NCBI GenBank assembly: GCA_965243025.1
Contig: CBDETY010000003.1
Coordinates: 512,001-576,000 of the forward strand
Length of the DNA: 64,000 nt
Direction of reading: 5' to 3'
DNA from: Candidatus Latescibacterota bacterium
GTDB taxonomy: Bacteria > Latescibacterota > UBA2968 > UBA8231
Positions within the stretch are counted from its first letter, which is position 1. Each line of letters opens with the position of its first letter. Below, piece after piece: positions 47,108 to 59,408 of the stretch. The notes beneath the pieces were generated by a model. That model was given only the letters and a program-made list of their open reading frames with translations, was not told the origin of the DNA and did no database searches. The position numbers and the translations under genes are program-made.

Positions 47108-47905
47108 CTATCGCTCGGTCCCAACCTTCCGGGCTCGCAGCAGGCAGTCGTCGCTCAGGGGCTCGATCGGCCGGAAGTCGCGGTGGGCGATCCACTCCGG
47201 GCGCTTGAACCGGCGGATGTGGTTGTCGACGCGGCACAGGCTGAGATAGACGATAACCCGGCCCCAGGGGCTGATGTTCGGAGGCGAGGCGTGCACGATG
47301 TTCGAGTGGAACATCAGGACCGCCCCCGGCTTCCCCTTGGGCGCGGCGATCCCCCCTTCGTCCGCCAGGCGGGCAACCGTATCCCCGTCGAGGGTCCACA
47401 ACGGGTACGAGGTCGTCAGGGTATCGTGGCCCGCCTCGATTACCCCCTGCCTGTGGCTGCGCGGGATGATGTACAGAGGCCCGTTGAACTCGCTCACCTC
47501 GTCGAGGAAGAGGGCTGTGTTCATCGCCCTGGCTTCCGGCATCCCGTCGTCACGCGCCCAGGTTCCGTAGTCCTGGTGCCACTGCCAGACATCGCCGCTG
47601 AAGGCGGCCTTGCCGTTGATCTTGTACTGGTGCATGTATACCGGCCCGTCGAGGAGCTGCATAACCGGGCCGATCAGGCGCGGATGGCGCCCGAGTCGGG
47701 CGAAGGCATCGTTGTAGGTATGGGCGGCGAACGCCGTGCGCACCGCCTCGCCGTCCTTCTCGCGCCAGACTTCCTCCCGTTGCATGGCGAAAATCACCGG
47801 CAGCTCGGCTTTCAGGACGCCGACCTCCTCGGAGGTGAAGAGATCGGGAAGGAACAGCCAGCCTTCCGTGTCGAACTGGCGCAGCTGGTCTTCGTTCAAT
47901 CTCAT
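47108..47905 (-). CDS. PhyH family hydroxylase, EctD/proline-hydroxylase-like
   Basis: YMHQYKINGK, WQWHQDYGTWARDDGMP (resembles but does not match the EctD signature), NGPLYIIPRSH, VHASPPNISPWGR. Confidence 0.85.
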   Translation of the reverse strand: MRLNEDQLRQFDTEGWLFLPDLFTSEEVGVLKAELPVIFAMQREEVWREKDGEAVRTAFAAHTYNDAFARLGRHPRLIGPVMQLLDGPVYMHQYKINGKAAFSGDVWQWHQDYGTWARDDGMPEARAMNTALFLDEVSEFNGPLYIIPRSHRQGVIEAGHDTLTTSYPLWTLDGDTVARLADEGGIAAPKGKPGAVLMFHSNIVHASPPNISPWGRVIVYLSLCRVDNHIRRFKRPEWIAHRDFRPIEPLSDDCLLRARKVGTER

Positions 47906-50178
47906 CGGAAGGCGAATCTCCTTTTTTCGAGAAGGACAGGCTCGGCCGCATCCTCCACGATCTTCAGGAAGCGGTTGACTTCAATTTGCGAGAAGCTCTG
48001 CCGGGTGCCCGAAGGCCAGGCGATCTCCAGGCGCTCGACCACCTCCGCCGATCCCAGCCCGATCTCCTGTTGCAGGCTGGAAGAGCCGAAGCTTCCTCCC
48101 GTCCCCGCGGTGAGGCAGATGCGCCGCGGCCGGCCGTGCTCGCGGACGTGCGCGGTGATGACGGCGCCGATGCCGTCCCGGTTCGAGCGCACTCCTTCGA
48201 GCTGCAGGGTGAGCCAGCTGTTGCCGTGTCCCGGGTTCTCGAACAGGACGTCCTGGTACACGTCCCCGGAGAAGGCGCCCCCGATCACCTGGTAGATGTC
48301 CTGGTCGCCGTCGTTGTCGATGTCGCCGAAGGAAACGGCGTGGCCCTTTTGCAGGTGGCCGAAGCCCCCCGACGTGGTTACGTCCTCGAAGAAGGCGCCA
48401 CCGGCGTTGCGGAACATGCGGTTGGGCAGCAGCGCCCGCATCTGCGGGTGGCCGGTGCCGATGTAGCAGTCGAGGAATCCATCGTTGTCGAGGTCGCCGA
48501 AGTTGGCTCCCATCGCGGCGATGGCGCGGTGCATGCCGGCTGCCCGCGTCGCGTCGGTGAAGGTTCCGTTCCCCTCGTTGCGATAGAGCCGCGGGCGGTC
48601 GATGACGCTCGGATTGTCGAAGTAGAGGTCGACGATGTCCGCGGCGCTCTCGAACTCGAAGGCTGCGGCGAAGAGATCGAGCCATCCGTCGTTGTCGTAG
48701 TCCCAGAACCAGGTGGGAAAGCTGGCCTGCGGGCCGGCGACTCCCGCCGCGGCGGTGACGTCGACGAACTCGGGTCCGGCCGTTGTGCCGCCATCCGTCC
48801 ATTCCCCAAGGTTGTTCCGAAAAAGGACGTTGTCCGAGTGCAGTATCGAGACGTAGAGATCGAGCAGCCCGTCGTTGTCGTAGTCCCCCCAGGCCACCCC
48901 CTTGACGTACCCCGCGAGATCGACCCCGGCAATCTCGGCGCGGTCGGTGAAGGTGCCGTCCCCGTTGCTGTGGAACAGCTGATTCGGATGCAGGCTGGAA
49001 GGCGCCGTGCCGAAGGCGTACAGGCGCGACTCGTTGCCGACGTAGAGATCGAGCCAGCCGTCGTTGTCGTAGTCTCCCCAGGAGGCCGAGTGGGTGGGGT
49101 GGAAGGAGAGCAGGCCGGAAGACCGGGTCGCGTCGGTGAAGAAACCGCGGGAGTCGTTCTCAAGGAGGCTGTTGGGGTGGAGGCCGTGTTCGTCCAGCCA
49201 TGCCCCGCGCAGCACGAGGACGTCGCGGTCCCCGTCGTTGTCGAAGTCGGCGTGGGTGAGGTTGAGGCCTCCGACCTGTCCGGCCAGCCCGGCCCGCCCG
49301 GTGTGCTCGTCGAAGGTGCCGTCTCCATTGCTGCGGAACAGGCGCAACGGGTCGCGGAGCCCCCAGGATGACGCCATGACGTCGAGAAAGCCGTCGCCGT
49401 CGAAGTCCTCCATGACGCTGCCCCCGGAGAGTCCGGCGGCGGCCAGGCCGCTGTGCGGGGCGACGTCGCGGAACCTGCCGGCGTCGCCGTCGGAGGCGAA
49501 GGTCTCCGGAGGAATCAGCCAGGTATCAGGCACCCCGTGCGGGTGCTCCCCGAGGGTCATGTAGGCCAGGTTGGCGAGCCAGAGGGAGCCGAGATCGTCC
49601 GGGTGGTCGGAGAGGAGACTGCCGAAATGGGAGATCGCGGTGCGCGAACCAAGGGGTCTCGCGTGCACTCCGGCCGCCGCTATCGGAAGAATGCAGGAGG
49701 CGGAGGTGTGCGCAACGAGGCAGTTCTGCTGCTCGCCGAGTCTCAGGTACGAAATTCCCAGCATGTCGAGGAGGAGCCGGCGAGACAGCTTTCGCGACCT
49801 GGGCTCGGACACTTCCCCGGCGCGTCCCCGCAGGCGTTCGAGCTCGGCGATCGCTTCTTCGGTGAGGCCGGCGCGAAGCAGCTCCGCGCTCAGAGCGAGG
49901 CCGGCGGCGATTTCCGCCTCGGGCCCCGCGCCCCCGGCAAGCGAGCCGGCCAGCTGTTGCCGCAGCCCGCGGGCCCGCTCGGCGTTCAGGTACTCGTTCC
50001 CGGCCGGGTCGGCGGTGGAGGCGAGATTTTCGAGCAGGGCCGCCATCTCCAGGTTGGATGCCGGCAGGGGCCTGCCAGGCGCCGGATCTGTTGCCCAGAG
50101 CAGCATCGCCAGGACGGGAAGCAGGTGCCGGAAGATGTCGACGGCAGGGGAAGCGGGGGGATGCGAAGAAGGGTTCAA
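47902..50178 (-). CDS. CRTAC1 family protein (N-terminal TPR-like helices, FG-GAP repeats, ASPIC/UnbV)
   Basis: DFDGDGFLD and DYDNDGWLD repeats, MGANFGDLDNDGFLD, GHLQKGHAVSFGD, SNRDGIGA, GGSFGSS; start uncertain (TTG 50178 or ATG 50106). Confidence 0.85.
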   Translation of the reverse strand: MNPSSHPPASPAVDIFRHLLPVLAMLLWATDPAPGRPLPASNLEMAALLENLASTADPAGNEYLNAERARGLRQQLAGSLAGGAGPEAEIAAGLALSAELLRAGLTEEAIAELERLRGRAGEVSEPRSRKLSRRLLLDMLGISYLRLGEQQNCLVAHTSASCILPIAAAGVHARPLGSRTAISHFGSLLSDHPDDLGSLWLANLAYMTLGEHPHGVPDTWLIPPETFASDGDAGRFRDVAPHSGLAAAGLSGGSVMEDFDGDGFLDVMASSWGLRDPLRLFRSNGDGTFDEHTGRAGLAGQVGGLNLTHADFDNDGDRDVLVLRGAWLDEHGLHPNSLLENDSRGFFTDATRSSGLLSFHPTHSASWGDYDNDGWLDLYVGNESRLYAFGTAPSSLHPNQLFHSNGDGTFTDRAEIAGVDLAGYVKGVAWGDYDNDGLLDLYVSILHSDNVLFRNNLGEWTDGGTTAGPEFVDVTAAAGVAGPQASFPTWFWDYDNDGWLDLFAAAFEFESAADIVDLYFDNPSVIDRPRLYRNEGNGTFTDATRAAGMHRAIAAMGANFGDLDNDGFLDCYIGTGHPQMRALLPNRMFRNAGGAFFEDVTTSGGFGHLQKGHAVSFGDIDNDGDQDIYQVIGGAFSGDVYQDVLFENPGHGNSWLTLQLEGVRSNRDGIGAVITAHVREHGRPRRICLTAGTGGSFGSSSLQQEIGLGSAEVVERLEIAWPSGTRQSFSQIEVNRFLKIVEDAAEPVLLEKRRFAFR

Positions 50179-50344
50179 ACCGGTTGATCGCCCGCGGGAC
50201 ACAGGGTTATGTTGGTGCCGCGCAGCGTAAATCAACGGATACCCCCGAACCGGTGACAACCGGAGCCTGCCTGCCGCCTCTCCGCAAAGGCGGGGAAACA
50301 GCAGCCGTTCCAGGGCAGGCCATTCAGCCCCCGGGCGCAGGAAA

Positions 50345-51234
50345 ATGAGCACGCCAGCGACCTTCGATCTGCACCTCCACAGCTACTGGAGCCACGACGC
50401 CTCCGCGGCTCCGGAGAGCCACCTGCGCCGGGCGCGCGAGCTCGGGGTTCGCTGGATCGCTCTCACCGAGCACTACCACCTCGATTCGCTTCCGGAGCTT
50501 CTCGAGGCCGCGGCAGGCTATCCGGAGGTGACTCCGATCCCCTCGACCGAGCTGACCGTCGACACCTCTATCGGCGAGGTCGACCTCCTCTGCCACGGCT
50601 TCCCGCTTTCGCAATCCCCGGAGCTGCGGGAGCTGCTCGACACCTACAGGGAATGGCGGGTCGAAACGGGCAGGGCCGTCGTCAGGGGCCTGCGCGAGCT
50701 GGGTTGCGACATCGACGAGAACGGCTTCATGGACCTGGCCAGGACCTACCGTCCTGCGGATGTCGTCGACCGGCACGGGCTCACCCAGGTAAAGGGGGAC
50801 GCCCTGCGCCGCTACCTCCTCGAAACCGGCAGGATTGCGGGCGAAGCGGAGTTCGCGGGGTTCCGGGCCAGGGCAAAGGAACTGGGAGCCGCTCCCCCGT
50901 ATCCCACCGCGGCAGAGGTGGTACCCGCGGTCAGAAGACTGGGAGCCGTGGTGTCGATCGCCCACCCCACGACAACTTCGGCCAGGGGGACCGCGGCCGC
51001 ATGGATGCCCTGCGGGAGGAGATCGGTTTCGACGGCATCGAGTGCGCCCACCCGATGGTCCCGCCGGAGTTCACCCCGTTCTACCGGGCTTACTGCGTCG
51101 AGCACGGGCTGGTGTCGACCGGCGGCTCCGATTCCCACACCGAGGCGGACATCGCAGCGGGGTTCGCCGGCCACGCGGGAGCAGACGAGTGGATGGAGGA
51201 GCTGCTCGAGCGCCTGCCCGCCGCCCCGAAGTAA
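50345..51234 (+). pseudogene. PHP-domain metallophosphoesterase, split by a one-base frameshift (real or assembly error)
   Basis: DLHLHS..SHD, LTEH and SIAHP in one frame; FDGIECAHP and TGGSDSH in another; junction at the C-run 50965-50968. Confidence 0.8.
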
Positions 51235-51274
51235 CCGAGCCGTCCCGCGGCCCCGGGCCCGGGAGCGGCGTCCC

Positions 51275-54200
51275 ATGCCGCGGCAGGGGGGCAGCCAGCC
51301 TCCTGTTCGCCGCCGTCCTCTGCCTCCCGCTCCCTGAAGTCTCCGCCGCCGGCCAGGCGGCTCGGCTCGCCGCCGACATGGAATTCCTGATCTCGCACGG
51401 CTCGCGCGCCGTCGGTTACCCGGGCGCCGCCGCGGCCGCCCGCCTGATCGAGAACCGTTTCGGCGACCTGGGTCTGAGCGACGTGCGCCGCCGGGAGTAC
51501 CCGGTGGGTATGCCGATGGACCGCGGCGCCTCCCTCACGGTGGCGGAGAGCGGCCTGTCGGCGCCGCTGCTGTGCATGTGGCCCAACCTGGTGCGCACCT
51601 CCACCCTTCCGCCGGAAGGACTGAGCCTGCCGCTGGTGCACGCCGGCAGCGGGGAGTGGGCTGAGCTCAACGGGAGCGAGCTCGAAGGCCGCGCCGTGCT
51701 CATGGATTTCAACAGCGGCCTCAACTGGCTGCGGCCGGCCTCTCTCGGGGCGGTGGCTGTGATCTTCATCGAGCCGGAGGAGACGACCGCCCGCGAGGCC
51801 CAGCGCAAGTACGCAGTCGCCCCCCTCGATGTTCCCCGCTTCTGGATCGACGCAGGCTCGGGGAAGCGGCTGCGCCGGCGCCTCCAGGAAGGAGGGGAGC
51901 TTGCCGTCACCCTGCGGGGGCGCATGGATTGGGAGATGCGCCCGGCCTGGAACCTGTCGGCGCTCCTGCCGGGCTCCGACCCGGAGCTCTCCGGGGAGAC
52001 GGTGGTGCTGCAGGCCTACTACGACGCCGGCTCGGTGGTTCCGGCCCTGGCCCCGGGAGCGACCGCGGCCTGCGGGACCGCCGCCCTGCTCGAAACGGCG
52101 CGCCATCTCGCCGCGCAGCGTCCTGCCCGCAGCGTCCTCTTTCTCGCCACCTCCGCCCACTACCAGGCGCAGCAGGGGATCGTCGACTTCATCAACCGGC
52201 GCGCCCGCACTCACGACGAGTACTCAGCCCGCTTCGGGGAGCCCCTCGACATCGCCCTTTTCGTCGGCCTCGACCTCTCCGGCGGCAGCGATCAGCTCGG
52301 TATCTGGAACAACCTGCGCGGCGATGAGCTGCGCCGCTTCTTCCTTCCCTACTCCCGCGTCTTCATGGCCCACGGGGAAGCGGCCGCAGGGGAGCAGGGC
52401 CGGAATGCGGAGCGCGCCTTCCTCAACGGCGTCAGTCCGGTCCGCGGCAGGAGCTGGGAGTCCCTCGCGCCGGGGGGAATCAACCCGGACGCCGGATGGG
52501 CTCACGCCGCCGGGGTGCCTGCCCTCACCCTGGCCACGGTCAACGACGGCAGGCCGCTGGAGTCCACCCCCCTCGACCGCGGCGTCGACATCCCCAAACT
52601 CGACCGCCAGGTGGAGCTGCTGAAGAGGGCGCTCGCCGGAGTGCTGGACGATCCCGGGCTGTCGTCCGGGCGCGCCGGCCTTGCAGGGGTGGCCAGGGAC
52701 CGCATGCGGGATCTCATCGTTCAGGCGCGCCAGTATCCCCGGCGCAGCCAGGTACCCGACCGTCCGCTCCCCGGCGCCCTCGTGGTGCTCAATACCTATG
52801 ACAAGCAGGTGACCGGCGTGCACGGGCAGCGGGTGGCAATCGCCGACGGAGACGGCAACGCCGTCTTCAGGGGGATTCCCTCCACCGTGGAGAAGCTGGC
52901 CGCCTTCGAGCTCGACCCTGCATCCGGGGCGATCCTCGCAGCCCCCGACCTGGCCAAGCGCGCCATCAAGCACCACGGAAAACCGCTGCCGGACGGTTGG
53001 CTCCCGGCCGCGGCGGCCCGGTCCGTCAACATCAAGACGGTCGTGCTGTTCAGGACTCGAGGCCGGGAGATCTACTCCCTCATCCGTCCGCGATCGCTCC
53101 TGGGCTACGGCGGGCCGACCGTCATGGACCAGGGAGGCGCGGAGCCGCGGCAGTTCGGGTTCCTGCTCAGCAAGTACCCGGAAGAACCGGCCGGTGTCCT
53201 GTTCGGTCCGGCCCTGAGAGGCGAGGAGAACCGCCTGCGGTTCCTGTTCGGGGGACTGCTGGAACAGCGCCTGCTGCTGCTCAACAGCCAGGGGCACGGC
53301 AGCGAGGAGGAGGCGCGCGGCATCGGCTACTCCATGGGGGAGGAAACCCTGACCCGGCTGACGGAGAAAGCGGCCCGCGACATGTGGCGGCTCGACGAGC
53401 AGAGGCTGGTCAAGCTCCGCGAGCACTCGATCAGCAGCCGGGGTCTCGAGCTTCTGCACAAGGGCGCCGGTGACCGGCTGGAGGAGGCCGCCGCCGCGGC
53501 TGAGGAGCTGCGCTGGGACCGCTACGTCGCCATGGCGCGGGAGGCCCTCGGTCTCGAGGCGCGCGTCTATCCCGAGATCCTCGCGACCCTCAACGACGTG
53601 ATCAAGGGGATGGTCTTCTTCCTGGCCCTGCTGGTTCCCGCCGCCTTCTTCGGCGAGCGCCTGTTCTTCGCCGCCGCCGACATCCGCCGGCAGCTCCTCG
53701 GGCTGGCGCTGCTGGTGCTGCTGATCTGGATGATCATCTCGCAGGTGCACCCCGCCTTCGACATCGCCCATCCGCTGGTGATCGTGCTGGCGTTTCTGAT
53801 CATGACCATGGCGGCCCTGGTCATGTGGATGGTCAGCGCCCGCTTCAACAGGACCGCGGCCGAGTACCGCTCCCGGGTTTCCCAGGTGCACCGGGCGGAT
53901 ATATCGCGGCTCGGGGCGGCGTACGTCGCTTTCATGCTCGGCATCTCGAATATGCGGCGCCGCAAGCTGCGCACGGCGATGACGCTGACCACTCTCACCC
54001 TTCTGACCTTCTCGGTGCTGTCGTTCACCTCTTTCGAGGACCGCATCCGCTTTGTGGCGATGCCGGCCCCTTTCGAAGGGGACCGGGAGGGTCTGCTGAT
54101 TCGCGACCGCAACTGGGGGAAGCTCGGCTACCCCGCCCTGGACTACGCCCGGTCCCACTTCGGCGCGGCTGCGGTCCTGGCCCCGCGCTACTGGCACTCC

Positions 54201-57200
54201 GGCCTCGAGGGAGGGGCCAGCTACGTCGAGGTGCGCCGCGGGGAGAGGGTCGCCCGGGCCCTCGGGATGATCGGGCTCGCCCCGGGGGAGCGCCTGGTTA
54301 CCGGCGTCGACCGCTGCCTCGTCGCCGGCAGCTTCTTCGAGGCGGGGGACGAGGCGAGCTGCCTGCTTCCCGACGAAATGGCGGAGGCGCTCGGCATCTC
54401 CGCGGCGGACGCCGGCTCGGCCCGCGTCCGCGTGTTCGGCCGCGACCTCCTGGTGCGCGGGATCTTCTCGGCCGAGGCACTCGACGGCCTGCGCGACCTC
54501 GACGGCGGCAGCCTGACCCCGATCGACACCCGGGTCGCCGCCTTCGACCCGCTCGACCAGCTGCTGGAGCAAGGGAGAGAGGGTGAGGAGGAAGCCGCGG
54601 TGCTGGAGATGACCGCGGCCCTGCGCCTGCCGGGGGCCAACGTCCTCATCACTCCGCACCGGACGCAGCAGGACTTCGGGGGTGCGCTTTTCTCCGTGGG
54701 CGGGCGCTTCCGCGAAGACGCACGGCCGGTCGAGCTCATCGAGAAGTACCTGCTGCGCGTCGCCGCCTTCATGTACGCCGGCATCGACGACGACGCCGGC
54801 GGCATCTCCGTGTACCGCTACAGCTCGGTCGGGTTGACCTCGGTCCAGGGGCTGGGAGCGCTGGCGATACCGGCGGTGATCGCGGCGATGATCGTCCTCA
54901 ACGCCATGCTCGGGGCGGTGTACGAGCGCTTCCGCGAGATCGGCATCTACTCCTCGGTCGGCCTGGCGCCCGTCCACATCTCCGTGCTCTTCCTCGCCGA
55001 GGCGACGGTGTACGCCATCCTCGGGGTGACCATGGGGTACCTCCTGGGGCAGGGGCTCGGCAAGCTGCTGATCGCCCTCGACATGCTCTCGGGGATCACC
55101 CTCAACTACTCCTCGGTCTCCGCGGTGGTCGCAGCCCTTTCGGTGATGGCGATCGTGCTGCTGTCGACGCTCCACCCGGCGCGGGCCGCGGCCCGGGCGG
55201 CGGTCCCCGAGGCGGTCCGGCGCTGGCGCCCCCCGGACCCGGACGGGGACCGCTGGGACTTCGCGTTTCCGTTCAACGTCAGCGAGTCCGAGGCCGCGGC
55301 GACCTGCGGCTTCCTGCACTCCTTCTTCACCGCCCACGGCGGCGCGGTCGGCGGCAGGATGTACACCGAGAAGGTGGTCCTGCGGCGGCATGAGACCCCG
55401 GACGGGCTGGCGTACCGCATCGGCTTCCGCATGTGGCTGGCGCCGTACGACCTCGGGGTCAGCGAGGAGGTGGGCATCGAGCTGGCCCCTGTCGACGACG
55501 CCCCGGGGATGTACGCGATCGCCATCGAAATCGAGCGCCTCAGCGGCGAGCAGCTGAACTGGCGGCGGCTCAACGGCCCGTTCTTCAACACGCTGCGGCG
55601 GCAGCTCCTGATCTGGAACACCCTGCCCGCCGAAACCCGCTCCGGGCACCGGAGCACCGCGGAGCGGCTGCTGGGAGCCGCGGCCGCAAAGCCGGAGGAT
55701 CCGGCCTCGGCGGAACCGTCGCTCCCGGGCTCAACCCCGGGAGAACGGCCGCGGGAGGGAGGCGGCGAGCAGCGCCCGTCCCCCTTCTCGTGGCGGGCCG
55801 TAGGCATAGGTACCGCCGGCGCCATGGCGGTCGGGGTCGGGGCTCCCTACTGCGTCTTCATGCTCAAGGGGTCGTGGATGGCGATCAACAGCACGGTGCC
55901 GATCGCCCTGTTCTACTTCTTCATCGTCGTCGTCATCGCCAACGTCGTCCTCGGCCTGGCCGCGAGGAGGTGGGAGCTCCGCAAGGCGGACCTGATCCTG
56001 ATCTACGTCATGCTGACCATGGCCGCTGCGGTCCCCAACCAGGCCTTCGTCGGCTACGTCATCCCCTGCATCGCCGGGTTCTTCTACTACGCAACCCCGG
56101 AAAACAAGTGGCTGGACATGTACCTCGCGGACGTCCCGAAGTGGATGGTCCCCGAGGTCCGGGCCGCGGAGCTGCTGCACGAGGGCCTTCCCCCGGGCGA
56201 GCCGGTGCCCTGGCAGGGCTGGGCGGAGCCGCTGACCTGGTGGTACCTCTTCTTCCTCGCCCTGAGCCTGATGATGGTCTGCCTGAACGTGATCCTCCAC
56301 CGCCAGTGGTCGGTTCACGAACGGCTCGAGTACCCGATGGTGCAGGTGCCGCTGCACATGATCGAGCGCTCGCAGGGGGCGTTCGCGCCGCTGGGACCCT
56401 TCTTCAGGAACCACTGGACCTGGATCGGCTTCCTCGTGCCGTTCCTGCTGCTCGGCCTGCACGGCCTGCAGCACTACTACCCGGCGGTTCCCGTCTTCAG
56501 TCCGAGCTTCGGCGCCCTGACCCTGATGGACGGGGCCTTCGTCCTCAAGTTCCACACCAACTACGCCTGGATCGGGATTTCCTACCTCGTCAACCTCGAC
56601 GTCACCATGAGCATCTGGGTCTTCTGGATTCTCGGGGTGTTCCAGAAGGCGCTGTTCGGGAAACTGGGGGTCGCCCCGACCGAGACCCTGAGCTTCTACT
56701 CCCTGCACTCGGCCGACCTCGCCCACCAGGCGACCGGCGCCTGCTGGGTCTTCGTGGTCTGGGGCCTGTGGGTCGCCAGGCGCCACCTGGGGCAGGTGCT
56801 GTCCAACGCCTTCGGCCGCAAGGCGGTCGACGACTCGGAAGAACTGATCTCCTACCGCGCCGCGGTCCTCGGGTTCGCCGCCAGCCTCCTGTTCATCGGC
56901 GCCTGGCTGTGGAAGTCGGGGATCCCGCTGGTGGTGCTGCCGATGTTCCTCGTCTCGGCGCTGATCTTCTACATCCTGGTCACGCGCGTGGTGGCGACCG
57001 CCGGGGTGGCCACGGCGCGCTCGCCGATGATCTCGGCGTTCGTCGTCATCTCCGGCCTCGGCAGCGCCTTCATCGGCACCAAGGGGCTGGTGGCGCTGAC
57101 ATTCACCTACCTTTGGCACTCGGAGATGCGCCTGTTCCCGATGGTCGTGTGCGCCCAGAACCTCAAGCTCGCCGAGACCGTCCGCGGCCCCAAGGGGAGG

Positions 57201-57698
57201 CTGTTCTGGGCGATCTGCATCGCCCTGGTTGTCAGCCTGCTGGCGGCGACCTGGATCATCCTTCACCTGTGCTACACGTACGGGGGCATCAACCTGCACA
57301 CCTTCTTCATGCAGAGTCAGTCGGTTCGCCTGTTCAACGACATGGCGCGCCACATCCAGCACCCGGTCGGCCCCGACCTGCGCGGCTGGGGGTTCACCGG
57401 CGCCGGCGCCGCCATCGAGGCCGGCCTGATCTACGCCCAGAAGCGGTTCTTCTGGTGGCCGCTGCACCCTGTGGGCTTCGTGATCGCCAACGGCTGGCTG
57501 ACCAGCCAGATCTGGTTCGCGGTCTTTCTCGGCTGGCTGGCGAAGCTCGTCATCATCAGGAACGGCGGCATGCAGCTGTTTCTCGCGGCGCGCCCCTTCT
57601 TCATCGGGCTGATCCTCGGGGAGGCGACGGCGGCCGGAACCTGGCTGGTCATCGACTATCTCGCCGGCAGCACCGGCAACCACATCACCCACATGTAG
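51275..57698 (+). CDS. Giant membrane fusion: M28/nicastrin-like ectodomain + two FtsX/MacB-like permease blocks + DUF6785/DUF6784-like multi-TM domain
   Basis: Open frame 51291-57698. Putative ATG 51275 with GGAG RBS is one base out of frame (G6 run). Motifs SRAVGYPG, QAYYD, NMRRRKLRTAMTL, ERFREIGIYSSVG, RQWSVHERLEYPMVQVP, WWPLHPVG. Confidence 0.8.
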
Positions 57699-57704
57699 CT
57701 GCCG

Positions 57705-59408
57705 ATGCGGGAGCGCCTGACACGCCTCGGGAGGGGAACCGCCGCGCCGATTGCCGCGGTAGGCCTGGCGTACCTGCTGACCCTGCTCTGCTTCGAGCGG
57801 GACGGCATGTGGACCACGGACAACGCCGCCAAGTTCCTGCAGGTGCGGGCCCTGCTGCAGAGCGGCTTCGCGAGCTTCGCCATTCCGTGGCCGGGCAGGA
57901 GCATCGACCCGGAGTTCGTCTACAACCCCCTGCCGTTCCACTTCTCGTCGGTGCGCGGCGGCGAGCTGTACTCGGTGTTCTCTCCCGCCTTCGCCATGGT
58001 GTCGGCGGTTCCGTACGCGCTCCTGGGATACTGGGGGCTCTACCTGCTGCCGTTCGCCTCGGCGCTGCTGATGCTGCGGGCGGTGGCGGAGCTCTGCGCT
58101 CTCGCCGGCGGCGGCGCCGGGGCCCGGCGGGCGGCGGTGCTGGTCGCCGGCCTCGCCACCCCGGTGTGGTTCTACGGCGTCGCCTTCTGGGAACACTGCG
58201 TCGCGGCCTGTCTCTGCCTGTGGGCGCTGCTGTTCTTCGCCCGCTTCGTCGATTCCGGCGCGAGCCGGGACCTGGTGCGGGGCGCGGTGCTCGTCAGCCT
58301 CGCGGTCTATCTCAGGGACGATCTCTACCTGCTGTGCGCGCTGCTGGCCCTGTCGGCAGCTGCCGCCCGCAGAGCGAACCGGCTGTCGACCGCGCTCCGG
58401 TGCGGGGGCGCCATGGCGGTCTGCCTGGCTCCCCTCTGGATCTGGCAGTGGCAGGTCATGGGCAGCCCGCTCGGGCAGCACCTGTCGACCCACCTGTTCT
58501 CTTCGGCGGGAATCCCGGGGCACCTCCTCGACCGTCCGAAGGTGTTCTACAACCTGCTGGCCGCCGCGAGCCCGGCCCCGATCGTTTCCATTTTCCTGTC
58601 GGCGCCGTTCCTCTACGCCTGGCTGCGCCGGCCGCGCTTCGACGACGCCGGCTTCGGCGCCGCCCTGCCCCTGTTCGCCGCCGCAGCGACGGTGAGCGCC
58701 CTGATCTCCTACGGCGGCTACCTCCTCTTCGACAGCACCCTGGCCTACCTGCTGGCCTCGTCGAACAGCCTGTTCGCGGCCGCGCCCCTGGTGATTCTCG
58801 CCTTCCCGCGCTGCGGGGAAGAGGGAGGAACGCGCCGGTGGCTGGGGCGGCTGGCGGCCGCCTACGCCCTGCTCTACGCGGCGGCCGCCCCCGATCTCGG
58901 CTCCTCCGGCCTGCACTGGGGCAACCGCTTCCTGCTGATCCTCTACCCGGTCTGGTCGCTGCTGGCCGCGGTCAACGTCGAGCAGTGGCGGCGGCGGGAA
59001 GGAGGCGGCCGGCGGTCCTGGAGGGACTGGAGCCTCGCCGCGGTCGTCGCCGTCAGCGTCGGGGCGCAGCTGTTCTCCGTCGAGCTGCTGCGCCGCAAGA
59101 AGGAGTTCTCCCACCGGCTCAACGACTTCGTCGCCGCGAGCCCGGAGCAGGTCGTGCTGACGAGCGAGCGCTGGGCGGGGCACGAGCTCCACCGCGTCTT
59201 TTTCGATAAGCCGGTCTTCTACGTCGAGTACCCCCACGCCATGGACGCCCTGCGGCAGAAGCTGAGGCAGGCGGGGTACGACAGCTTCCTGTTTCTGACG
59301 CGGCGGCAGCGAGTCGCCGCGCGGCAGCCCGGGGTCGAAATCGGGGACGGCGGCTTGAACTGGTACGGGATGAAGGCATTTTCAGTCGGCATGGCGTCGC
59401 CGCGGTAG
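57705..59408 (+). CDS. Multi-pass membrane protein, GT-C-like putative glycosyltransferase
   Basis: First TM followed by WTTDNAAKFLQ, YSVFSPAF, TPVWFY...FWEH, WGNRFLL; about 12-13 TM segments and a soluble C-terminal tail. Confidence 0.6.
   Translation: MRERLTRLGRGTAAPIAAVGLAYLLTLLCFERDGMWTTDNAAKFLQVRALLQSGFASFAIPWPGRSIDPEFVYNPLPFHFSSVRGGELYSVFSPAFAMVSAVPYALLGYWGLYLLPFASALLMLRAVAELCALAGGGAGARRAAVLVAGLATPVWFYGVAFWEHCVAACLCLWALLFFARFVDSGASRDLVRGAVLVSLAVYLRDDLYLLCALLALSAAAARRANRLSTALRCGGAMAVCLAPLWIWQWQVMGSPLGQHLSTHLFSSAGIPGHLLDRPKVFYNLLAAASPAPIVSIFLSAPFLYAWLRRPRFDDAGFGAALPLFAAAATVSALISYGGYLLFDSTLAYLLASSNSLFAAAPLVILAFPRCGEEGGTRRWLGRLAAAYALLYAAAAPDLGSSGLHWGNRFLLILYPVWSLLAAVNVEQWRRREGGGRRSWRDWSLAAVVAVSVGAQLFSVELLRRKKEFSHRLNDFVAASPEQVVLTSERWAGHELHRVFFDKPVFYVEYPHAMDALRQKLRQAGYDSFLFLTRRQRVAARQPGVEIGDGGLNWYGMKAFSVGMASPR

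Follow-up and report, generated by a model that had tools for sequence, protein, structure and literature searches.

The stretch analysed here (the window) comprises 64,000 nucleotides of a Candidatus Latescibacterota genome (C3:512001-576000 of source genome G000, an assembly of 6.8 Mb in three contigs) and contains a gene of about 2,140 codons in which two proteins that are separate in most genomes are joined into a single chain. The N-terminal 1,490 residues, hereafter called the giant subunit or simply the giant, comprise a signal peptide, a peptidase-like head and a single MacB/FtsX-type membrane unit, and the C-terminal part is predicted to be a permease with the fold of the OPT/Yellow-Stripe family. 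The fused frame is real and conserved. We consider it probable that two subunits of an ATP-driven inner-membrane system, which is widespread but uncharacterised and serves substrate capture and uptake, have been joined in this gene by a natural fusion that is conserved.

Reading frame and conservation of the fusion

The gene occupies a single open frame on the + strand (50835-57698) and has no stop inside its 6.4-kb coding part; translation from 51276 (51276-57695, +) yields 2140 residues. The window has a G+C content of ~70%, and the third-position GC of the gene (0.90) is the same as that of the genes around it. Gene calls were taken from a crude filter on third-position GC, and gene boundaries are approximate. 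Pfam families follow one another in the protein as Peptidase_M28 (residues 226-307), FtsX (1197-1307), DUF6785 (1505-2003) and DUF6784 (2038-2132). This is the order proposed in the first-pass annotation, a set of predictions made from the letters of the window, and it holds with the corrections given below; the motifs listed there, NMRRRKLRT, ERFREIGIYSSVG, RQW..ERLEYP and WWPLHPVG, are all present in the translation. Among the profile models that it had named for checking, Peptidase_M28, FtsX, DUF6785 and DUF6784 found matches, Nicastrin and OPT (PF03169) gave none in the Pfam scan of the protein at E<=0.1, and MacB_PCD (PF12704) was matched in relatives of the giant.

The two halves are joined in frame by the Pro/Glu/Ala-rich linker that had been noticed at the outset (55680..55780, +, residues ~1469-1502 of the translation), which is modelled with low confidence by AlphaFold2 (predicted local distance difference test, pLDDT, <50 at residues 1475-1490). 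It had been suggested that reads with a stop in this linker would turn the fusion into an artefact. Contigs of runs X1 and X4 (54926-57750), both from one study, and of run X5 (55336-56335), from another, cross the linker with 0 differences, and an assembly artefact at this position is ruled out by independent contigs that span every junction without a difference.

The same architecture recurs in other assemblies. A search among proteins of 1,177-3,745 residues returned 36 long proteins that match the DUF6785 part at 52-97% identity; most of them are 2,086-2,161 aa in length with PF20581, PF20580 and PF02687, and many additionally contain PF04389 and/or PF12704. The closest metagenome proteins are P0004 and P0005, of which P0004 is 97% identical over the OPT part and 93% over the N-terminal 1,480 residues. 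In the congener G002 the entire gene lies in a single frame (L063:2428-8742), and an 88%-identical orthologue of the window gene is present at L065. The orthologue of a further congener, G001 (L062, G001:C10:600500-612000), shows two frame changes in the ectodomain and another in the OPT part, which reflects either assembly errors or a broken copy. When the DUF6785 part was compared with a library of 1.84 billion proteins, 4,871 cluster representatives were obtained at E<=0.001. Among the best 150 of these, the only fused ones are P0018 (2,120 aa) and the partial P0131, and the unfused relatives next in rank are at most 39% identical. Because the unfused relatives fall to this level, the fused forms represent one clade on the OPT side.

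Domain organization of the encoded protein

The head of the giant is a PA-domain-bearing, M28-like ectodomain (51360..52640, +, residues ~29-455). PF04389 was matched with 27.6 bits (cut-off 21.3) at residues 226-307, an alignment that covers profile positions 1-78 of 193 only, and a profile of 73 family members matched the PA-domain M28 aminopeptidases 2ek8 (E 4.9e-12) and 6hc6 (E 6.7e-11) over the M28 core as well as its PA insert. Together these matches support the M28/PA-like domain that had been placed at ~51360-52650. Searching the PDB with the single ectodomain sequence gave chance-level matches (a WD40 protein, a chitosanase and 2anp at E 0.6).

We take the M28 zinc ligands to be His, Asp, Glu, Asp and His, together with a catalytic Glu, and have assigned their positions on this assumption. 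The 2ek8 and 6hc6 alignments reach all but the last two ligands, ending before the last Asp and His. There, the HxD motif has Tyr in place of its His; the position of the bridging Asp is occupied by Thr in the window protein and by Glu in at least 90% of the relatives, and that of the Glu-Glu pair by His-Tyr in the window protein and His-Phe in most relatives. The residues replacing the catalytic positions are themselves conserved at >=90% in the alignment of 73 sequences. Since the HxD, bridging-Asp and Glu-Glu positions are all substituted, the head is classed from these alignments as a predicted pseudo-peptidase by canonical criteria, which is in line with the initial proposal.

Residues 456-1490 were modelled with AlphaFold2 (model m3b4976413f35; mean pLDDT 80, predicted template-modelling score, pTM, 0.71). 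The model places two beta-rich periplasmic domains with a helical hairpin after the head (52704..53504, +; residues ~477-690 and ~695-743). According to hydropathy and the model, three extra transmembrane (TM) helices follow (53514..53882, +; residues ~747-869), by which the chain crosses from the periplasm into the cytoplasm. A single MacB/FtsX-type, that is type VII ABC, unit is then recognised by Pfam, PDB sequence matches and Foldseek (53907..55202, +). It consists of an amphipathic helix with the invariant GISNMRRR (residues 878-895), TM1 (897-917), a periplasmic domain of ~260 residues between TM1 and TM2 (927-1183) and TM2-4 with ERFREIGIYSSVG (1193-1309), all on the + strand. A cytoplasmic alpha/beta domain closes the giant in the model (55251..55688, +; residues ~1326-1471); residues 1315-1490 have no NCBIfam match, and no Pfam match falls in this cytoplasmic domain.

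Two FtsX permease blocks had been read into this region in the first-pass annotation, and this is the point at which its domain scheme has to be revised. PF02687 is matched with 41.2 bits (cut-off 25.5) at residues 1197-1307, the lone FtsX match in the protein, and the additional sub-threshold NCBIfam matches to MacB, LolC, ADOP and FtsX all fall on the same stretch. HMMER aligns NMRRRKLRT with the segment that precedes TM1 in YtrF and MacB. PDB sequence matches of the membrane unit are YtrF, MacB and LolC; by structure, Foldseek retrieved MacB (5gko, E 1.5e-11), whole MacB, LolC/E, YtrF, HrtB, YbbP and BceB chains at probability 1.00, and also isolated MacB periplasmic domains. Moreover, each giant paralogue of the source genome has one PF02687 match, whereas its tandem FtsX permeases have two. 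Because of the one PF02687 match, the equivalence of NMRRRKLRT with the pre-TM1 segment and the topology of the model, we recognise one type VII unit preceded by three extra helices, and a second FtsX unit in the chain is ruled out by the PF02687 count, the NMRRRKLRT alignment, the model and Foldseek. GISNMRRR and ERFREIG, both facing the cytoplasm, are invariant or nearly so in 73 sequences.

The C-terminal OPT-fold permease domain (55758..57695, +) contains DUF6785 (373.5 bits, cut-off 25) followed by DUF6784 (97.7 bits, cut-off 26.4), both far over their cut-offs, and the DUF6785/6784-like assignment of the first-pass annotation is thereby confirmed. AlphaFold2 modelled the ~650 C-terminal residues with a pLDDT of 95 and a pTM of 0.94 from a 72-sequence alignment, and Foldseek matched this part to barley Yellow Stripe 1 (7wst, 7wsr) with E 5e-8, probability 1.00 and template-modelling scores of 0.63-0.70. 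These two entries are the only PDB fold matches below E 0.001, the runner-up standing at E 0.026. No match was found when the DUF6785 profile was compared with PDB sequences, and ESM Atlas scores of 0.77-0.79 ('peptide transporter'/OPT) were taken as a lead only and not as evidence. Judged from the modelled structure, the C-terminal part is of the OPT fold and not a member of PF03169.

Partner genes and synteny

Counting the window gene, the source genome has seven giant paralogues, and the remaining six, whose open frames span 1,481-1,674 codons, are consequently unfused. DUF6785 is matched 50 times in the genome, once in a long frame with a giant and 49 times outside, mostly in frames of ~650-700 codons with a few up to 1,012, and tandem pairs occur (e.g., 6714948/6716869 and 5578733/5580840 on C3). 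These counts bear out the proposal that the window gene joins normally separate proteins. With fifty matches in 6.8 Mb, this uncharacterised OPT-fold family has also expanded to a very large number of paralogues.

A large polytopic protein adjoins each of the seven giants or is fused with it. The partner belongs to DUF6785/DUF6784 in two cases (fused in the window gene, adjacent at L013), to UPF0182 in one (L012:4154-6985(-); PF03699, E 8e-288), and in four cases to a 660-880-aa polytopic family that we call famY, located downstream at L009:4426-7077(-), L011:5060-7477(-) and L014:7700-9787(-) and upstream at L010:4193-6172(+). A fifth copy of famY is found in the genome at C3:104643-106640. 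The family has no Pfam or NCBIfam match; hhalign aligned it with DUF6785 over 307 columns (probability 81.7%, E 1e-5), and an ERLxFP motif is common to both, which suggests that famY is a distant DUF6785 relative. UPF0182 was considered as a further OPT relative and rejected (hhalign probability 1.3%). The pairing of a giant with UPF0182 is also seen in two related genomes (L060:6505-9267 and L061:2283-5078(-)). A preprint links UPF0182 to FtsH regulation in Actinobacteria (bioRxiv 10.1101/2025.11.14.688347), and no connection to the giant system was found.

Around the stand-alone DUF6785 genes, 76 flanking genes were scanned and yielded 105 Pfam families with no dominant partner (FG-GAP/ASPIC 7, MR_MLE 3, CBM9 3, sulfatase 2; xylose-isomerase-like proteins are also present), so that the neighbours of the 49 stand-alone genes are diverse and mostly catabolic.

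Giants are widespread beyond the source genome. Each of 31 related genomes from 3 families and 20 genera carries 2-7 of them, and at least 424 confirmed giant stretches were found in species-representative genomes from at least seven phylum-level groups. From these stretches 80 loci were kept for the analysis of synteny (Latescibacterota, Gemmatimonadota, Armatimonadota, Omnitrophota, Elusimicrobia, Planctomycetota, Ratteibacteria, Zipacnadia), and their neighbours were scored by local searches with hidden Markov models. The downstream gene, evaluable at 76 loci, is famY at 53, DUF6785 at 13 and neither at 10, which gives an OPT-fold gene at 66 of 76; the upstream gene, evaluable at 64 loci, is DUF6785 at 38 and none at 26. 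The common arrangement is an OPT, giant, famY cassette. Nine of the 13 downstream DUF6785 genes share the stop-to-stop frame of the giant, i.e., are fused to it. Loci with a downstream DUF6785 have an upstream DUF6785 in 0 of 12 evaluable cases and no famY. The fused form can be regarded as a variant of the cassette in which two components share one gene and there is only one OPT-fold partner. The comparison of fused with adjacent homologues, which had been advised at the outset, therefore returned both states.

A FastTree phylogeny was calculated from 83 giant subunits, namely those of 76 of the 80 loci whose match covers profile positions 520-1400 or wider and the seven paralogues of the source genome. 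The label 'fused' requires two changes on this tree. One fused clade comprises eight rows, and the window giant with L065 is separated from it only via nodes of 88-90 support; a single origin of the fusion is compatible with the well-supported branches.

The ATPase

No ABC_tran match lies within the window, as first reported, and the nearest one is 16.6 kb from the FtsX match of the giant gene. All 30 other FtsX matches of the genome lie at most 6.6 kb from an ABC_tran match; the seven giants are 16.6-159 kb away. The weight that had been placed on a missing ATPase is nevertheless not borne out, since a short FtsX gene and an ATPase gene stand as a pair in the cluster elsewhere and co-occur with the giant in Armatimonadota.

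ATPase-profile matches were obtained in 7 of the 80 loci; four are genes of the MacB/LolD type that share the strand of their cluster. L134, L135 and L138 have the order famY, ~300-aa protein, PqqD-like protein, short FtsX (209-228 aa), ATPase, and L140 has the order short FtsX, ATPase, giant, famY. The four in-cluster ATPases are 69-78% identical to a source-genome ATPase (C3:4456704-4457490), which is preceded by a 234-aa short FtsX (C3:4455966-4456667) that is itself 58-60% identical to the short FtsX of L135 and L138. The short FtsX/ATPase pair is encoded once in the source genome (C3:4455966-4457490), 3.9 Mb from the window gene, and adjoins family-2 glycosyltransferases. The L011 paralogue has the same tail as the ATPase-bearing clusters, consisting of famY, a ~300-aa protein (L011:4013-5041(-)) and a PqqD-like protein (L011:3667-4098(-)). 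The pair of ~300-aa and PqqD-like proteins follows famY both in the source genome and in other phyla (L135:10560-11908).

Co-occurrence was followed in 121 Armatimonadota genomes. Both the giant and the short FtsX were found in 97, the giant only in 1, the short FtsX only in 0 and neither in 23; the totals are hence 97 for the short FtsX and 98 for the giant, and the search result is the same for both in 120 of the 121. The two lie on the same contig in 58 of the 97 genomes with both and within 12 kb in 53. This count is strong, yet it is not to be read as a probability, since the genomes are related. The search in other genomes for a co-occurring ABC ATPase, suggested by the first-pass annotation, has thus yielded a candidate. 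From the synteny of the clusters and the 97/0/1/23 co-occurrence we therefore take it as probable that the system is not ATPase-less and that this candidate ATPase acts in trans. As the gene counts and the co-occurrence suggest, the unlinked pair probably serves all seven giants, and the short FtsX is likely the second FtsX unit beside the single one of the giant.

An orphan MacB/LolD-type ATPase with no permease beside it was also noticed in the source genome, between uvrB and a short-chain dehydrogenase (C3:1351305-1352054; L064:6306-7055). In 15 of 18 genomes of the same family it is conserved at 81-98% identity, and in four genomes of other lineages its best match is the in-cluster ATPase (55-58%). 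It may be a second ATPase of the giant system.

The 5' end and the flanking genes

The nearest canonical in-frame starts of the fused gene are GTG 51189, with GGGAG 9-13 nt before it, and ATG 51378, which lies past the signal peptide; the 5' end with the signal peptide is tentatively placed at 51189..51377 (+), with a hydrophobic core at ~51291-51350. A frameshift before the signal peptide had been postulated earlier. When the DNA was aligned with that of two congeners (~88% identical), the G-run proved free of indels, which rules out a frameshift repair there; the difference is a substitution, AGG in the window at 51285-51287 against ATG in the congeners. P0004 and P0005 have their N-termini at this ATG position, and the ATG previously proposed at 51275 is ATC in both congeners. 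Since the contigs of X1, X4 and X5 reproduce the letters of the window at the AGG site, the canonical start is truly absent in the strain.

Upstream lies a PHP-domain gene (50345..51232, +) whose frame is broken by one base missing after 50964. The base is present in both congeners and in run X6; X1, X4 and X5 agree with the window, and the frameshift for this reason looks like a real, strain-level change rather than an assembly error. Further upstream an FG-GAP/ASPIC-UnbV repeat protein is encoded (47902-50352, -), which belongs to the commonest immediate neighbour family of the stand-alone DUF6785 genes in the source genome (7 of the 76 flanking genes). Downstream, a 567-aa polytopic protein with at least seven hydrophobic segments (57705..59408, +) starts 7 nt past the stop of the giant gene. 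It has no Pfam match, and NCBIfam NF047440 (LA_3751/LA_3752 family) is matched with E 3.4e-54 and 184 bits, under the cut-off of 200; by this similarity the product is a putative LA_3751/LA_3752-like glycosyltransferase.

Discussion

The arrangement described above led us to the reading that we hold to be the probable one, namely that the window gene unites two subunits of an ATP-driven inner-membrane system working in substrate capture and uptake. The first subunit would be the giant, with its signal peptide, PA/M28-like head, two beta domains, three helices, MacB/FtsX unit and cytoplasmic domain, and the second an OPT/Yellow-Stripe-fold permease that is encoded by a separate neighbouring gene in most genomes; further components would be a short FtsX protein with four helices and an ATPase of the MacB/LolD type. 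The periplasmic head and the MacB-type periplasmic domain might capture an oligomeric substrate (peptide or oligosaccharide), the energy of cytoplasmic ATP hydrolysis would be transmitted via the FtsX helices, and the substrate would be passed to the covalently attached OPT-fold channel for import. Because the genes are fused, a physical cooperation of the MacB-type unit and the OPT permease is suggested by the Rosetta-stone argument. Uptake as the direction finds indirect support in the DUF6785 genes that lie amid catabolic genes and in barley YS1, the sole solved fold relative, which we take to be an importer. Observed here are the domain architecture, the folds, the conserved fusion, the synteny and the co-occurrence; physical contact between the parts, use of the ATPase in trans, transport direction and substrate are all inferred.

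Several observations weigh against this reading. One giant paralogue is paired with UPF0182, which is not OPT-like, and OPT membership of the C-terminal part is derived from the fold, PF03169 being unmatched at E<=0.1. The link to the ATPase is drawn from synteny in other phyla and from co-occurrence among related, non-independent genomes; the pair stands in cis at only 4 of the 80 loci and is unlinked in the source genome, the 23 Armatimonadota genomes with neither gene may be one or a few clades, and, the completeness of the sampled genomes being unstated, 'not found' does not equal absent. MacB/Lol-type systems move substrates outward from the membrane or periplasm, so that export or extraction fits equally, and the PqqD-like gene and the glycosyltransferase-like neighbour indicate neither direction clearly. 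Finally, with the start codon lost (AGG) and the upstream gene frameshifted, the copy in this strain may be decaying although its 6.4-kb frame is intact.

A more far-reaching version can be put forward tentatively, as something possible rather than probable. The system might be a hybrid of a primary and a secondary transporter, in which an ATP-driven type VII mechanotransmission module (giant, short FtsX and a shared ATPase in trans) catches an oligomeric nutrient in the periplasm with its dead-peptidase head and feeds or gates an OPT-fold channel, a channel that the window gene joins to the module covalently. One ATPase would then serve as many as seven giant/OPT cassettes that are interchangeable and differ in substrate, which would replace binding-protein-dependent importers in several uncultured phyla.

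The main rival is an export or envelope-assembly machine, in which the OPT-fold part would move a peptide, glycan or lipid-linked substrate outward and the type VII unit would extract it or pass it on, as in LolCDE and MacAB. We regard it as rather unlikely, although the closest solved relatives of the FtsX unit, MacB, LolC/E and HrtB, presumably all act outward, the conserved cluster includes a gene for a PqqD-like peptide chaperone, a putative membrane glycosyltransferase follows right after the window gene, and the short FtsX/ATPase pair of the source genome lies beside family-2 glycosyltransferases. Against it stand the presumed import function of the only solved OPT-fold protein and the 50 DUF6785 paralogues, which are found mostly amid catabolic and not biosynthetic genes; moreover, no MacA- or TolC-like component was seen in the clusters, for which no systematic search was made.

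In a less probable alternative, the FtsX module has lost its link to any ATPase, and a proton-driven transporter of the OPT fold uses it solely as a scaffold or as a receptor in the periplasm. This would account for the distance of at least 16.6 kb between each of the seven paralogues and the nearest ABC_tran match, for the presence of an ATPase of the right type in the cluster at 4 of 80 loci only and for the extra cytoplasmic domain after TM4. It is difficult to reconcile with a short FtsX that tracks the giant in 120 of 121 Armatimonadota and lies at most 12 kb from it in 53 of 97 genomes, or with the near-invariance of GISNMRRR and ERFREIG in 73 sequences, which looks as if a cytoplasmic partner docks there.

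Some type VII systems control periplasmic hydrolases, and a pseudo-enzyme head would suit a regulator of such a hydrolase, comparable to FtsEX with EnvC or PcsB, with the OPT neighbours being incidental. This is very improbable, as the linkage to the OPT fold is too regular (66/76 downstream, 38/64 upstream), the fusion is kept down to 52% identity and the clusters showed no hydrolase gene that recurs. That the long frame is an assembly artefact, or the copy a decaying pseudogene, as the AGG in place of the congeners' ATG and the frameshifted PHP gene might suggest, is scarcely credible given the 6.4-kb frame free of stops, a third-position GC like that of the neighbouring genes, the independent contigs that cover all junctions without a difference and refute the artefact part, the fused orthologues in many assemblies and the in-frame GTG with its Shine-Dalgarno-like GGGAG 96 nt before the lost ATG.

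A better knowledge of the capture and uptake system proposed here would be of value, since fusion is a classical sign of proteins that touch each other and the window gene offers the best handle on a MacB-type module working with an OPT-fold permease. If the proposal is true, it would provide the first functional context for DUF6785/DUF6784 and for famY, a family without a Pfam model, and the single-chain form is a practical target for structure determination, both partners being present in one polypeptide. No paper on DUF6785, DUF6784 or the combination of FtsX with an M28 peptidase was found in a search that excluded subscription journals and supplementary files, which agrees within this scope with the initial statement that no characterised example was known. 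The two halves come from known fold classes; their constant pairing and their fusion are absent from the literature searched. Our work contributes the conserved fused form, the count of paralogues within one genome and quantitative support for a short FtsX/ATPase module acting in trans.

Comparison with known systems

The giant shares the four-helix FtsX-type unit with the type VII ABC systems (MacB, LolCDE, FtsEX, HrtBA, YtrEF, YbbAP, BceAB), and with it the amphipathic helix at the N-terminus, a large periplasmic domain inserted between TM1 and TM2, and an ER.REIG motif that follows TM2; the likeness reaches Foldseek probability 1.00 over ~470-500 columns. In contrast to these systems, it has ~870 additional N-terminal residues (PA/M28-like head, two beta domains and three helices) and an additional cytoplasmic domain, the ATPase gene does not lie beside the giant gene in most genomes, and the giant is constantly paired with, or fused to, OPT-fold permeases, a combination for which no type VII system was found in the literature searched. 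The gene set with a short FtsX partner and a MacB/LolD-type ATPase may be seen as reminiscent of the LolC/LolE heterodimer. As for the head, the M28 core with a PA insert is common to 2ek8 (an Aneurinibacillus aminopeptidase) and 6hc6 (Bacillus subtilis YwaD), whereas the giant has other residues at the first zinc-ligand His, the bridging Asp and the Glu-Glu positions; it is presumably comparable in this respect to the pseudo-peptidase ectodomains of nicastrin and the transferrin receptor.

The C-terminal part matches the OPT/Yellow-Stripe family (TC 2.A.67; barley YS1, 7wst/7wsr) in fold over the whole domain, at 11-12% identity with barley YS1. It differs from the OPT/YSL proteins in that DUF6785 has 50 paralogues in one genome and that the domain is here covalently tied to an ABC-type module. 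The multitask ABC ATPases MsiK and MsmX serve type I sugar importers with binding proteins and are likewise encoded once, away from several permeases. Here, seven giants would share one short FtsX/ATPase pair, a sharing that we infer, and the importers served by MsiK and MsmX are of type I and depend on binding proteins, whereas the giant system is type VII-like.

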